64,000 nucleotides of DNA from Patescibacteria group bacterium (GCA_038077975.1 JBBUGM010000011.1:22038-86037), one strand, 5' to 3'. Positions 21,773 to 38,174 are shown, counted from the first letter of the stretch. The notes: generated by a model not told the origin, from the sequence alone. Made by a program: numbers and translations.

Positions 21773-22081
21773 TCAGCGGTTGGCATACCCCACAGAAGGC
21801 GGGGTATACACTTCTCTTCCTTCGGCCGTGGACTGTTGCACCTCCCGCACTTTCACGCACTCGCCAATGTCGAACGAATACGCGGTACAGGTCGAATGGA
21901 TACAGCCGTGCTCCGTGCTGACTTCTCTTGCCGTGAGCAGGTGCGGACCAGTGTTCCGCTCTGCCACGTAAAGGTCGCCGGACCGGATTTCACCCTCGTC
22001 CATCTCGAGCAAGATGCCGCCGAAGTCGACGACCGCTCCACTCCGAAGGGCTTTCAATGTGCGATACTCTCTTCCGAACAT
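21773..22081 (-). CDS. hypothetical protein
   Basis: 102-aa ORF. Strong RBS AAAGGAGG sits 5 nt before the ATG. A hairpin plus T-run at 21734-21765 follows the stop. Confidence 0.45.
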
Positions 22082-22141
22082 CGGGGCCTCCTTTCCTCGA
22101 ATTTACATCTCTTAAAAGTATAGCACAAAAAAGAATCATTG

Positions 22142-22774
22142 TCAAACATCAAACTGCTGGCCAGTGATGGCAAGAAAAAGCAGGTCAATGATTGGAAGCA
22201 AAAATCGGAAAAATCCGGAGAAAACTAAGAGAAAAACAATGAACATTCCGTACCGCTCGAGCCAGATGAAAGCTCTTATTGTCGATTCCGTTTTGGGCAG
22301 AACCGCGAAAAGAACTTTAGAGCCGTCGAGGGGCGGGATGGGAACAAGATTGAAAATTGCAAGCAAAATATTTATAAAAACTATCATTCCGAAAAGCATG
22401 GCCAAGAAACTGGAAAGTAGGCCCGCGACGGCAAACAGCCGAATGAATGTTCCGAAAACTAGCGCGATGACTAAATTCGAAATCGGCCCGGCCACGGCTA
22501 TCTTCGCTCCCCCGCCGACCGGATCTTTCAAGTTGCGCGGATTGTACGGCACTGGCTTCGCCCAGCCGAAAACGATGCCGGCTGTTAAAGATAGTATGAG
22601 CGGCAAAAGGAACGAGCCGAAAAAATCGAGGTGCTTCAGCGGATTCAAAGTCAGCCGCCCCGCGAGCCGCGCCGTCTGGTCACCTAAATATTCCGCAATA
22701 TAACCGTGCGACACCTCATGAATAACGACTGAAAGAATTAGTATGATGAGTTGAAAAATGAGAAGTTCAGGCAT
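22142..22774 (-). CDS. site-2 protease family (M50) membrane metalloprotease
   Basis: HEVSHG (HExxH) lies in the first TM segment. Multi-TM protein. Start at MPELLIF. Confidence 0.75.
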   Translation of the reverse strand: MPELLIFQLIILILSVVIHEVSHGYIAEYLGDQTARLAGRLTLNPLKHLDFFGSFLLPLILSLTAGIVFGWAKPVPYNPRNLKDPVGGGAKIAVAGPISNLVIALVFGTFIRLFAVAGLLSSFLAMLFGMIVFINILLAIFNLVPIPPLDGSKVLFAVLPKTESTIRAFIWLERYGMFIVFLLVFSGFFRFLLPIIDLLFLAITGQQFDV

Positions 22775-34727: not shown

Positions 34728-34835
34728 TATTGTTGTATAATTATATCAATATCCTAGAAACAGCAAATACGTCCTTGTCATCACTTGGGGTTTCTAATGT
34801 AGGGCCTATAGTTAAATGGCATAACACCTCATTTG

Positions 34836-34978
34836 TCCCGACTCGACATTTTTAATATGAACGAAGTCGAGGATTCTCGATAGTTCAGGTGGGCCCATAG
34901 CTCATCTGGTAGAGCGCCACATTTGCAATGTGGAGGTGACCGGTTCGAGTCCGGTTGGGTCCACCTGAACTATCGGAA
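34836..34978 (+). mobile_element. 143-nt insertion inside the outer tRNA-Ala, carrying a complete tRNA-Ala(TGC)
   Basis: Bounded by the outer tRNA halves. Contains a 6-bp hairpin. A 13-bp perfect helix flanks the inner tRNA. Confidence 0.5.
34891..34963 (+). tRNA. tRNA-Ala (anticodon TGC)
   Basis: Acceptor GGGCCCA/TGGGTCC with G3:U70, D arm GCTC-ATCTGGTA-GAGC, anticodon arm CCACA-TTTGCAA-TGTGG, T arm ACCGG-TTCGAGT-CCGGT. No encoded CCA. Confidence 0.9.
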
Positions 34979-35000
34979 CAATGAGGAATTGGCAGTTCGA

Positions 35001-35019
35001 TTCTGCCTAGGTCCACCAA
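35001..35019 (+). repeat. direct repeat copy 1 (TTCTGCCTAGGTCCACCAA, the tRNA 3' end)
   Basis: Identical 19-mer recurs at 35173-35191. Confidence 0.85.
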
Positions 35020-35172
35020 CTAAATTTATCCAACTTCTCGGTAGGTAAATTTAGTTTTATGATTTTGCAGAATCGAACGGGAAAGGGGTCGGGAAAACGG
35101 AAGTTTTCCCGTGGTGGAAGACTTGAAACCGCTGGGTTTCAAAAAATTTTGCATCCGCAAAATTTTGTGAGC

Positions 35173-35191
35173 TTCTGCCTAGGTCCACCAA
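35173..35191 (+). repeat. direct repeat copy 2 (orphan tRNA 3' end)
   Basis: Identical to 35001-35019. No tRNA body precedes it. Confidence 0.85.
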
Positions 35192-35220
35192 TGTGCTAAA
35201 TTAAAAGCATTACAAAATAA

Positions 35221-35538
35221 ATGAAAAAATCCGATTATTTCTTAAAAAGCTTGATAAATGCCGCTGGTGTTTTTGTTTATGTTTTCGGAGTAGTGTGGCT
35301 GATCTCGAACGCAAAAATTATCTTTGGCGAACAGGAACCGGAAGGCCCGATCATTCCCCTTTTCATGCTGCTCTTATTCATTGTCTCGGCAACGATCACC
35401 GTACTTTTGGTGTTCGGAAAACCGGTTTATATGTACCTCGACGGTTTGAAAAGAGAGGCTATCATTTTACTCCTCTCAACGCTCGCGTGGCTTATACTTT
35501 TGCTCGCTGTGGTTGCCGGAGTTATTATTGCGCAATAA
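35221..35538 (+). CDS. small integral membrane protein (3 TM)
   Basis: 105-aa hydrophobic ORF. Confidence 0.55.
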   Translation: MKKSDYFLKSLINAAGVFVYVFGVVWLISNAKIIFGEQEPEGPIIPLFMLLLFIVSATITVLLVFGKPVYMYLDGLKREAIILLLSTLAWLILLLAVVAGVIIAQ

Positions 35539-35545
35539 GGCGGGA

Positions 35546-35575
35546 TTGACTTTTCCCCAAGTTCCGTGCTATAAT
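35546..35575 (+). promoter_or_regulatory. sigma70-type promoter TTGACT-18-TGcTATAAT
   Basis: -35 at 35546-35551. Extended -10 at 35567-35575. Located 40 nt upstream of the small ORF. Confidence 0.7.
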
Positions 35576-35615
35576 AGACTCAGTTCGGCCGATCTCTAAC
35601 CCTTAAGGAGGGTTT

Positions 35616-35792
35616 ATGGCAACAACCATGGTTGAATCTCGGCAGCAGCCACATCTCTTCCGCTTCAAGCCGGAAGTTCCGACGAGCTACAGCTTCGGAG
35701 CTCCCTGCGAAGGCTGCGGATTGCTGATGGGCTCCGCCGAGCATCGATTCCCCTTGGAGAGCGGCGGCACGGGCCACAAGACGTGCAAGTAG
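35616..35792 (+). CDS. 58-aa Cys/His small protein, not in the ORF track (MATTMVESRQQPHLFRFKPEVPTSYSFGAPCEGCGLLMGSAEHRFPLESGGTGHKTCK)
   Basis: RBS AAGGAGG at 35605-35611 lies 4 nt before the ATG. Consensus promoter upstream and perfect terminator downstream. CxxC...HxxC spacing. Confidence 0.6.
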   Translation: MATTMVESRQQPHLFRFKPEVPTSYSFGAPCEGCGLLMGSAEHRFPLESGGTGHKTCK

Positions 35793-35807
35793 CTTCTCCA
35801 GCTTTTC

Positions 35808-35839
35808 AGAGTGTCCCCCTTGGGACACTCTTCTTTTTT
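35808..35839 (+). terminator. intrinsic terminator
   Basis: AGAGTGTCCC-CCTT-GGGACACTCT followed by TCTTTTTT. Confidence 0.85.
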
Positions 35840-35851
35840 GACGCGAAATTT

Positions 35852-36091
35852 TTAACGATGAGGGCAACCGGCCCAACAGCAAGGCCGGCGCTTTCCTTCT
35901 GCAAGCTCTGCGATTGTCCGCTTAACATGATTTTTCCTTGTCTTTGGAGTTTTAACGGAGATAATCCAGCAGATCCATTCGTTGCGCGCGAGTGGCGTAA
36001 TATCCTCCCATGCTGCTCGTGCCGCTGGGTGAGATGTAAGGGCTTTTCTTAAATCCGCTGGCATTTTGTGCGCCGATTCTTTTTCTGTCAT
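35852..36091 (-). CDS. YdeI/OmpD-associated family protein
   Basis: 79 aa. ITPLARNEWICWI and GKRRPCCWAGCPHR are typical of this family. Confidence 0.75.
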   Translation of the reverse strand: MTEKESAHKMPADLRKALTSHPAARAAWEDITPLARNEWICWIISVKTPKTRKNHVKRTIAELAEGKRRPCCWAGCPHR

Positions 36092-36182
36092 AAGATTATT
36101 TTATCAAAAAGAGGCGGTGAAGCCCGCCGTCGCGTTCTTTTTGCGAACTGTGTCCGCCGAAGCCCGCTATGGCGGGCGAAAG

Positions 36183-36269
36183 CGGAGGCGGGAGGATTCG
36201 AACCTCCGAGGGGATTTCTCCCCAACCGCATTTCGAGTGCGGCGCGTTAGACCACTCTGCCACGCCTCC
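36183..36269 (-). tRNA. tRNA-Ser (anticodon CGA)
   Basis: Acceptor GGAGGCG/CGCCTCC, anticodon arm CCGCA-CTCGAAA-TGCGG, long variable arm, T loop TTCGAAT. Confidence 0.9.
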
Positions 36270-36475
36270 ATGCCGCTAATAATAAAACGCCGCAATGCGA
36301 TTGTCGAGAACCAATTTTTTAAAAGAAAAATTGGGGATTAAAATCCCGTGTTGGAAGGCGCCCCGACCAGTTGGTCGGGGCGATGTGGGAAACCGAGGGT
36401 GTCCCAGATGGGGGTCGGGGTTTTAATTTGGACATGCTATACTTGGTCCAGGACTTTTGAAACGGAGAGTGGAAA

Positions 36476-37084
36476 ATGTCCACCTGGGCAGAACGGCTCG
36501 GCTTCTCCAAGTGGGTCGACTTTGACCACACACATTCTTTCGCGGGAAAACTCAAAAACGTTTTCGTTGTGCACGTCGTGAACTTCGCTTGGGTCATCAT
36601 GGCGCTTTTCATTTTGACCCAACTTACTGGCAAAACTTCTCAAGAGATCACCTCTATCCTCGCCGCCAGTCCTTTCATCGGCTCCGGAATACTCCTCAAG
36701 CTCTATCCCGCTCTGGCCGTAAGCGTGCCGCTCTTGTTTTTCCTCGCAGGTATCCTCGCTCCCTATTGGGAAGAAAGGGTATTCCGTGTTCTCGTGAATA
36801 AATACGGTCGGAAACATGAACCCGACTTCAACCCGAAAAAATGGGGATTCACATGGGAACTGATGCTCTGTTCTTCTATCATCTTCGGCATCATGCATGG
36901 CTCGCCACTCAACATTCTCTTTCAGGGAGTTGGCGGGTTCCTCTATTCTTATCTCTACGTCAAGAACAACAATTCCTACTGGTCCATTGTGCTCGCGCAC
37001 GCGATGTGGAACGTTTCTGTCATTTTCCTGCTTCCTTGGTTCGTGAACGGACAACTTTTTATGTTTCTCACCTCCGCATTCTAA
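36476..37084 (+). CDS. CPBP family intramembrane glutamic endopeptidase (CAAX protease-like)
   Basis: EERVFR, FGIMHG and HAMWN motifs in a multi-TM ORF. Confidence 0.8.
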   Translation: MSTWAERLGFSKWVDFDHTHSFAGKLKNVFVVHVVNFAWVIMALFILTQLTGKTSQEITSILAASPFIGSGILLKLYPALAVSVPLLFFLAGILAPYWEERVFRVLVNKYGRKHEPDFNPKKWGFTWELMLCSSIIFGIMHGSPLNILFQGVGGFLYSYLYVKNNNSYWSIVLAHAMWNVSVIFLLPWFVNGQLFMFLTSAF

Positions 37085-37097
37085 CGGAGGTGTTTTT

Positions 37098-38174
37098 TTG
37101 TATGCTACAATTATTCCAATGGCCCAATCCCCAATCATATCTACAATAAAAAAGGTGATGCCGGCGGTCGTCTCCATCGTCATCTCGAAACATCTTGAGG
37201 ATGTGGAAAAGGAACTACCCAAGGATCTTTTCGTTCCCGGGAAGGATGGCGAGAGCGCCCAAAAATTTCACATTCCGGAAATGCTCGTCGACAAGCGCGG
37301 TATGGTGCAGGTCGGCGGCGGCTCCGGGTTCGTGGTGGAGTCGGGCGGCCTTATTCTCACGAACAAGCACGTCATCGGCGACCCCAAGGCGGAATACACC
37401 GTCGTTTTGAACGATGACCGTAAATTCTCCGCAAAAATTTTAAGCCGCGATCCGATAAACGACGTTGCAATCGTGAAGATCGAAACAAAAGGACTGCCCG
37501 TAGTAAAATTGGGTGACGCGACAAAACTCGAACTTGGCGAACAGGTTGTCGCGATTGGGAACGCACTTGGAATATTCAAAAACACCGTCTCGGCGGGCAT
37601 CATCTCCGGCCTATCACGCGCCATCATGGCGCAGGCGGAACCGGACGCGCCGCCGCAGGAAATGCGCGGGCTGATACAGACGGATGCCGCCATCAACGTC
37701 GGCAATTCCGGCGGGCCGCTCGTCAATTTGAACGGTGAGGCGGTGGGTGTGAACGCCGCCATCGTTTTCGGCGCGCAGAACATCGGTTTCGCCATCCCGA
37801 TCAACGCCGCAGGTCGCGATCTCGACGACATAAAAAAATTCGGCCGGATAAAGCGGCCCTTCCTTGGCGTGCGCTACATGATGATCGATGACAACCTTTC
37901 CCAAAAAATGAATTTGTCTGTAAGCTACGGCGCTTTGGTGATGCCAGAGGGGCCGCAAGATATGGGGCACGGCATAGTTCCCGGAAGCCCAGCCGCAAAA
38001 GCGGGCATAAAAGAAAAAGATATTGTGCTCGAATTCGCGGGGCAAAAACTGGACCGCAATCACCCGATCCAGGATTTTTTGGAAAACATGAACGTCGGTG
38101 ACGAAGTCGAAATGCTAGTTCTGCGGAACGGCAAGCAGTTCAGAACGAAGGCGAAACTCTCGGAACGGACGTAG
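37098..38174 (+). CDS. htrA: HtrA/DegP family serine protease with a PDZ domain
   Basis: GNSGGPLVN active site and C-terminal PDZ-like region. TTG start 5 nt after GGAGGTG. Confidence 0.9.
   Translation: MYATIIPMAQSPIISTIKKVMPAVVSIVISKHLEDVEKELPKDLFVPGKDGESAQKFHIPEMLVDKRGMVQVGGGSGFVVESGGLILTNKHVIGDPKAEYTVVLNDDRKFSAKILSRDPINDVAIVKIETKGLPVVKLGDATKLELGEQVVAIGNALGIFKNTVSAGIISGLSRAIMAQAEPDAPPQEMRGLIQTDAAINVGNSGGPLVNLNGEAVGVNAAIVFGAQNIGFAIPINAAGRDLDDIKKFGRIKRPFLGVRYMMIDDNLSQKMNLSVSYGALVMPEGPQDMGHGIVPGSPAAKAGIKEKDIVLEFAGQKLDRNHPIQDFLENMNVGDEVEMLVLRNGKQFRTKAKLSERT

Follow-up and report, generated by a model that had tools for sequence, protein, structure and literature searches.

Small RNAs with an embedded small ORF, such as SgrS/SgrT, RNAIII/hld and SR1/SR1P, are known as dual-function sRNAs. 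The unit described here resembles them in that its transcript, of about 250 nt, would have a promoter and an intrinsic terminator of its own as well as an embedded short ORF, and in a predicted structure that is above average. It differs from them in that the ORF would fill nearly the whole transcript and in that no Rfam family matches it. A review of the subject is also available (PMC12310071).

A second point of comparison is provided by the orphan small ORFs, or proto-genes, of bacteria. The 58-codon ORF shares with these a length below 60 aa, a lack of homologues, an odd composition, inconsistent calling by annotation pipelines and restriction to one population; it is unlike typical orphans in that its expression signals are unusually complete and strong. 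MAGs of Patescibacteria abound in small orphan ORFs that have not been characterised, and the present ORF had already been deposited as a hypothetical protein. It would work as any small stand-alone gene does, and is a single-population addition to the very large orphan small-ORF class and not a new family.

The third comparison is with the small zinc-ribbon and zinc-knuckle proteins (Pfam zinc-ribbon families, DUF5679 and DksA/TraR-type C4 fingers), in particular a DUF5679 protein (PF18930) encoded in a Pacebacteria MAG (locus L007). This protein is similar in size (52 versus 58 aa), in its two pairs of potential metal ligands and in its CxxCG knuckle, and its gene lies near the same membrane-protein gene and near tRNA genes, again in a Patescibacteria genome. 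However, BLASTP gave no alignment between the two at E <= 100, and the 58-aa peptide had zero matches at E <= 10 in Pfam and NCBIfam, zinc-ribbon profiles included. In addition, the second knuckle of the 58-aa peptide is HxxC at the extreme C-terminus and not CxxC, its 30 N-terminal residues are Pro-rich and have no counterpart in DUF5679, and no confident fold is predicted for it. In pattern the peptide is most like the small zinc-ribbon proteins, and we have filed it in no family because both profile and sequence matching fail.

Here, we describe the element that encodes this peptide. It lies within the window, by which we mean the whole 64-kb stretch of DNA that was analysed, and comes from a Patescibacteria MAG recovered from Hainich groundwater, in agreement with an early guess, made from the sequence alone, that the genome belonged to the CPR. 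Our preferred reading, to which we assign a probability of roughly 0.55, is that the element is a translated, lineage-specific (orphan), monocistronic small-protein gene. According to this reading, the extended -10 promoter would give rise to a transcript of about 258 nt from near 35582, ribosomes would load at AAGGAGG and initiate at the ATG that follows, and transcription would end at the hairpin and U-tract downstream of the ORF. The product would be a soluble peptide of 58 residues, in which CEGCG and HKTC may provide the ligands for one metal ion. That the unit is transcribed and translated, that its product binds metal and that it has a role in the cell are all inferred from the features set out below.

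Results and Discussion

A plus-strand unit with strong expression signals

The features of the element and of its surroundings are collected in Table 1. The preliminary description had placed a promoter, a Shine-Dalgarno (SD) sequence, an ATG that opens the ORF, and a terminator in a row on the plus strand, and all four were found where it had placed them, which supports the view of a self-contained expression unit on this strand.

Table 1. Features of the window discussed in the text, with positions counted from its first nucleotide.
Feature	Position	Strand	Remarks
Cassette upstream of rpsL	21773-22150	-	
Promoter of this cassette	22145	-	TTGACA-17-TGcTATACT; same design as the cassette at 35546
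SD and start of this cassette	AAGGAGG 22093, ATG 22081	-	SD 5 nt before the ATG
102-aa protein gene	21773-22081	-	just upstream of rpsL, beside the str operon
Weak-HTH ORF, 209 aa	34098-34727	-	Pfam E >= 0.0075
Split tRNA-Ala-like gene	34802-34835 (5' half), 34979-35019 (3' half)	+	
Nested tRNA-Ala(UGC)	34891-34965		
105-aa membrane-protein gene	35221-35538		upstream of the element
Promoter, sigma-70-type (predicted)	35546-35575	+	TTGACT -35 (35546-35551), 18-nt spacer, extended -10 TGcTATAAT (TG 35567-35568, TATAAT 35570-35575)
Antisense 100-aa ORF	35580-35882	-	
5' leader, about 33 nt (predicted)	35582-35615	+	holds the SD; start site placed about 7 nt past the -10
7-bp hairpin AACCCUU-AAG-GAGGGUU (predicted)	35598-35614	+	from folding; would partly sequester the SD
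SD AAGGAGG	35605-35611	+	4 nt upstream of ATG 35616
58-codon ORF (MATTMVES...GHKTCK)	35616-35792	+	stop-terminated frame, start ATG 35616
Long irregular hairpin (predicted)	35638-35741	+	predicted fold inside the ORF
Intrinsic terminator (predicted)	35808-35839	+	perfect 10-bp stem, 4-nt loop (35808-35831), then TCTTTTTT to 35839
OmdA/YdeI, 79 aa	35852-36091	-	PF13376, E = 2.7e-20; convergent with the element
Rce1-like/CPBP protease, 202 aa	36476-37084	+	PF02517, E = 3.5e-15; called in the NCBI assembly
HtrA-type protease	37158-38174		from the Pfam scan
Leucyl-tRNA synthetase ORF, 1202 aa	40187-43795	-	

The promoter matches the sigma-70 consensus at 11 of 12 positions, in addition to the TG of the extended -10, and is the top-scoring promoter-like site within 33-38.5 kb. 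Sites with at least 11 of 12 matches occur seven times in the window versus 0.67 expected under a first-order Markov model; therefore, near-consensus sigma-70 promoters are genuinely in use by the host organism. Judging from its sequence, the promoter at 35546 would be active. Since no terminator intervenes between the upstream membrane-protein gene and the element, transcripts that read through from that gene may contribute to expression of the element.

The weight to be given to the SD is less obvious. A 4-nt SD core precedes 10 of 41 well-defined gene starts (about 24%) versus a background of 10%, and most starts are merely A/T-rich upstream, including that of an EF-Tu-like gene which stands behind the sole promoter with 12 of 12 matches. 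AAGGAGG itself is present in 10 copies in the window versus about 7.5 by a hand estimate from base composition, and an ATG follows only two of the 10. The host thus has a low-SD genome, in which an SD is neither needed for a gene nor proof of one. What had been called a textbook ribosome binding site is indeed an intact AAGGAGG, although its value as evidence is reduced in such a genome. The hairpin that would partly sequester this SD was considered as a regulatory device and rejected: its folding energy of -7.4 kcal/mol (z = -1.05) is within chance, with 35 of 200 shuffled sequences folding equally well, and a regulatory role for it is speculative.

The terminator hairpin has a predicted energy of -17.4 kcal/mol (z = -5.3). 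Its description as a perfect 10-bp hairpin with a T-run is correct, while the term GC-rich was a mild overstatement, with G-C in 6 of the 10 pairs. On the minus-strand side the hairpin is followed by GAAAAGCU, and because this gives no U-tract, the terminator is predicted to serve plus-strand transcripts only. The OmdA gene, which is convergent, has its stop codon 13 nt beyond the end of the terminator.

Of the approximately 226 nt that separate the predicted start site from the terminator, the ORF occupies 177 nt. When this 226-nt transcript body was shuffled 20,000 times with its dinucleotide composition retained, 2.0% of the shuffles contained a complete ORF of 58 codons or more that begins with ATG, and 0.055% contained such an ORF together with a correctly spaced 5-nt SD. 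Taken together, the signals exceed chance.

The predicted product

The translation of the ORF agrees residue for residue with the peptide quoted in the preliminary description. The product has a mass of 6.3 kDa and a pI of 7.8 and is predicted to be soluble, without a membrane segment; its GRAVY is -0.44 and its Kyte-Doolittle maximum over 15 residues is 0.89. The small toxin of a type I toxin-antitoxin system was ruled out as a candidate, the peptide being neither hydrophobic nor membrane-spanning. Its predicted tryptic peptides include QQPHLFR, FKPEVPTSYSFGAPCEGCGLLMGSAEHR and FPLESGGTGHK.

The CxxC-19-HxxC spacing that had drawn attention to the peptide is real: the ligand pairs are C31-x2-C34 and H54-x2-C57, with 19 residues between them. 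CEGCG and the C-terminal HKTC could jointly hold one metal ion, and the CxxC...HxxC pattern is the one basis on which a zinc knuckle or ribbon may be proposed. The peptide does carry a two-knuckle, four-ligand pattern of this kind, and such patterns arise by chance in Cys-containing ORFs. A search of the PDB gave nothing meaningful at E <= 10, and a single-sequence AlphaFold2 model (pLDDT 60, pTM 0.19) contained only short strands at residues 43-46 and 52-55.

Small-protein mRNA or small RNA

The strongest competitor to a small-protein gene, which we nevertheless hold to be unlikely, is a stand-alone sRNA of about 230-260 nt that acts through base-pairing or protein binding and is either non-coding, its ORF being incidental, or dual-function in the manner of SgrS/SgrT and SR1/SR1P. 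A strong promoter of its own and a Rho-independent terminator, with no co-directional gene downstream, make up the classic anatomy of a trans-acting sRNA; however, this anatomy is equally that of a monocistronic small-protein mRNA and so does not discriminate between the two. The location of the element in a tRNA gene cluster, the orphan status and atypical composition of the peptide, and a host genome that is mostly without SDs all count on the side of an sRNA.

A further argument for an sRNA is the folding of the predicted transcript, which gives z-scores of -3.9 to -4.5 as a whole and of -2.4 without the terminator, whereas coding control windows have a mean z of -0.15 (sd 1.1) and reach -2.5 or below in only 1 of 39 cases. 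Much of this signal lies in the terminator, however, as the ORF alone has a z of -1.3 and the hairpin over the SD is not significant. The long irregular hairpin inside the ORF (z = -3.6) is a weak sign of structured RNA in the model, its boundaries having been picked after folding and the antisense strand scoring equally well.

Known RNA families were also considered. Rfam 15 (4227 families) gave no relevant match at E <= 1 in 12 kb and none relevant to the element at gathering thresholds across the whole window; when the 401 nt around the element were scanned in isolation, no family matched even with the cut-off relaxed to E <= 10. This speaks against an sRNA. ARAGORN found no tRNA or tmRNA at the element and only the flanking tRNAs. 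With cmscan and ARAGORN negative, 6S, SRP, tmRNA, RNase P, riboswitches and the sRNAs in Rfam were rejected as candidates. Nor was homologous DNA found from which covariation could show.

What argues for a small-protein gene over an sRNA is the combination, seen by chance in about 0.05% of shuffles, of an SD, an ATG and an ORF that fills the transcript, together with a codon-position periodicity that would be unexpected in non-coding RNA. The GC content of the ORF by codon position is 0.55/0.53/0.74, with p = 0.027 in a permutation test corrected for the choice of frame. In a codon model, the ORF frame is the best of the six (0.12, versus -0.36, -0.30 and -0.06 to -0.38 elsewhere); its score corresponds to the 12th percentile of real genes and is reached by 9% of non-coding frames. 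The GC2 of 0.53 is atypical, the genome norm being about 0.38. Codon bias of the kind found in highly expressed genes was considered as the cause of the high GC3 and would explain it in part only, as such genes have a GC3 of 0.60-0.64 versus 0.74 in the ORF. A GC content of 0.58 lies at the 97th percentile, a level common to many ordinary coding regions, and GC-richness was therefore rejected as a mark of structured RNA or of a foreign island.

Occurrence and annotation

An NCBI record of a Patescibacteria MAG contains the very same peptide as hypothetical protein AAB897_01780, and the DNA of the element was found in six contigs, from Hainich ENA assemblies, Logan assemblies and the NCBI assembly GCA_964361345.1. 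These contigs (four samples/assemblies) are 100% identical across 35100-36300, and because of this identity neither dN/dS nor covariation can be computed and selection cannot be measured. The annotations disagree: one NCBI record calls the 58-aa ORF, whereas GCA_964361345.1 does not and calls instead a 40-aa antisense, out-of-frame ORF (35806-35928), while missing the OmdA gene. Should the ORF prove to be both translated and highly expressed, it would offer a clean case of a taxonomically restricted small protein with full signals in a streamlined genome. It would then be useful for the study of gene birth and, given that public annotations of this DNA differ, as a benchmark for small-ORF callers.

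No relative of the peptide was found in any of the searches, in keeping with the first impression that it was of no recognisable family; this holds for every library and database searched. A word-indexed search of 5.8 billion clustered proteins returned only the peptide itself. An exhaustive phmmer search of 1.84 billion representatives gave no relative, and its three non-self matches were all artefactual: P0045 and P0047 were rejected because they are translations of tandem DNA repeats, with scores built up from as many as 22 weak repeat matches, and P0046 because a 14-residue CxGCG..GS..H motif, repeated six times, is all that it shares with the peptide. Scanning genome, metagenome and viral contigs in translation brought up no relative of the peptide, DNA-pattern scans and searches of phages and plasmids found none of the element, and no paralogue of the ORF is present within the window. 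The absence of homologues is informative because the same databases recover the relatives of the neighbouring genes; for the 105-aa membrane protein, for example, they contain 43 homologues, the closest non-self one being 71% identical. With no homologue in the databases searched, nothing attests to purifying selection on the 58-codon frame.

A lineage-specific element in a rearranged tRNA cluster

Synteny was analysed by means of the membrane-protein gene, for which 8 loci from the 43 homologues were fetched and examined. By blastn and tblastn the element was absent from all of them, and the genes downstream differ. What lies beyond the membrane-protein gene in the closest relatives (L002-L004) is a short terminator and then unrelated sequence; more distant relatives have other genes there. 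The element was likewise found in none of 80 loci with an OmdA homologue. Because it is absent both from the membrane-protein loci of relatives and from the 80 OmdA loci, the element is lineage-specific; it lies within a visibly rearranged tRNA cluster. In the Pacebacteria MAG the order is simpler, namely tRNA-Ala(ggc), tRNA-Arg, the DUF5679 zinc ribbon, tRNA-Ser, tRNA-Ala(tgc) and the membrane-protein gene.

These observations bear on a further explanation, which we consider decidedly improbable, that the element is functionless or very young, a proto-gene or a leftover of rearrangement that may be transcribed or translated but has no selected function. It is present in one population only, and is missing from this position in the closest relatives (those with 71% identity in the neighbouring protein) as well as in more distant ones. 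The region has visibly been rearranged: a tRNA is nested in a split tRNA-Ala, the 3' end of a tRNA is duplicated and the gene order is unlike that in the Pacebacteria MAG. In addition, the peptide has an atypical amino-acid composition and no confident predicted fold. However, a near-consensus extended -10 promoter, a well-spaced 7-nt SD, a transcript-filling ORF and a terminator with a perfect stem are unlikely to arise, or to persist, jointly without selection, and the streamlined genomes of Patescibacteria leave scant room for junk.

It is tempting to go further and to imagine a case of gene birth within the rearranging tRNA cluster of an ultra-small genome. The element, confined to one groundwater population, would then encode a strongly expressed small metal-binding protein of the Cys/His kind and of recent origin, either de novo or through strong divergence, or else would be a dual-function sRNA. 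We regard this bolder version as more doubtful still.

Neighbouring genes and the precursor-peptide reading

The preliminary description had also raised the possibility of a precursor peptide, and a specific form of this can be imagined in which a RiPP or bacteriocin precursor is processed by the CPBP and HtrA proteases, with OmdA, of a "bacteriocin-protection" family, providing immunity. A small Cys-containing peptide near CPBP, HtrA-type and OmdA/YdeI genes is what suggests it. Pfam assigns the neighbouring ORFs at 31.4-43.8 kb to TIM, SIMPL, an S55-like peptidase, the weak-HTH ORF, OmdA, CPBP, HtrA, ASCH and LeuRS. Eight flanking ORFs in this interval were scanned for a maturase or exporter, and none was found, which leaves the precursor reading without its expected partners: no radical-SAM, YcaO or LanM-type enzyme or C39-ABC exporter is among the products of these ORFs, and the genes are housekeeping ones. 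The empty OmdA loci (0 of 80 with a similar element) point in the same direction, as does the Pacebacteria MAG, in which an HtrA gene and an adjacent 191-aa gene lie near the tRNA cluster without the 58-aa peptide. Finally, the peptide has no N-terminal double-glycine leader, its sole GG being at residues 50-51 of 58. We therefore consider a precursor peptide very improbable.

Least credible of all is that the real gene is the antisense ORF, which does exist as previously listed and offers 100 open codons but starts with a TTG inside the 3' end of OmdA, has neither promoter nor SD nor Pfam match, has a codon score (-0.04) typical of antisense frames, is of a kind to be expected at 57-60% GC and is called by none of the annotation pipelines examined, so that the 58-codon ORF is the better gene candidate of the two.

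A cassette of the same design upstream of rpsL

A second cassette of this design was found on the minus strand, where it precedes a 102-aa protein. The protein has 54 homologues of 45-79% identity in Parcubacteria and Sungbacteria; its ORF is GC-rich and GC3-rich, and it contains Cys and His and falls into no Pfam family. It is a conserved, uncharacterised small protein of Patescibacteria. Its gene and the 58-aa ORF are alike in their consensus -35, extended -10 with TG, AAGGAGG and ATG, and both are GC3-rich, encode Cys and His and have no Pfam family. They differ in that the 102-aa protein has 54 homologues and the 58-aa peptide none, and there is no evident likeness between the two peptides. 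Since a conserved protein stands behind the same cassette, the design expresses real proteins in the host genome and provides an internal positive control for the 58-codon ORF, and the combination of a strong promoter with AAGGAGG marks at least one conserved protein of an unannotated family, upstream of rpsL.

Other observations in the window

Several features of the surrounding DNA deserve mention in their own right. The tRNA-Ala-like gene is split in the anticodon loop by an insert of about 143 nt, which holds a complete tRNA-Ala(UGC) flanked by a 20-nt inverted repeat (34878-34897 and 34956-34975). When the halves are joined, ARAGORN recognises a valid cloverleaf in which the junction 34835|34979 restores the UGC anticodon. 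One tRNA nested within another, the scar of a gene replacement and an unusual intron are all conceivable explanations. An exact 19-nt direct repeat of a tRNA 3' end (TTCTGCCTAGGTCCACCAA) is present on the plus strand at 35001-35019 and again at 35173-35191, 172 nt apart, and ARAGORN found no tRNA in 35020-35200. The repeat looks like an att-site duplication left by integration or excision. Between tRNA-Arg and the split tRNA-Ala lies the 209-aa weak-HTH ORF, which overlaps tRNA-Arg by 10 nt and does not occur in the equivalent cluster of tRNA genes in the Pacebacteria MAG; it may be a candidate for a mobile or homing-type gene. In the contig of the closest relative (L002), the 400 nt of unannotated sequence past the membrane-protein gene contain AAGGCTCTGGGCTTTAGCCCA twice, at 1117-1137 and 1295-1315.

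Downstream of the element, the OmdA/YdeI protein of 79 aa has homologues with 61-80% identity in Patescibacteria, Acidobacteriota, Pseudomonadota and MAGs labelled Nanoarchaeia or Thermoplasmatota (L019-L098), with at least 500 matching genome loci. Such very high conservation across phyla suggests frequent horizontal transfer. At the position of the CPBP protease gene, the ENA call (36437-37222) is an ORF of 246 aa on the minus strand that matches nothing in Pfam, and is probably on the wrong strand. Finally, the leucyl-tRNA synthetase ORF contains extra Pfam domains, a NUDIX domain at residues 569-688 and a serine/alpha-beta hydrolase at residues 242-348, and looks unusually decorated.
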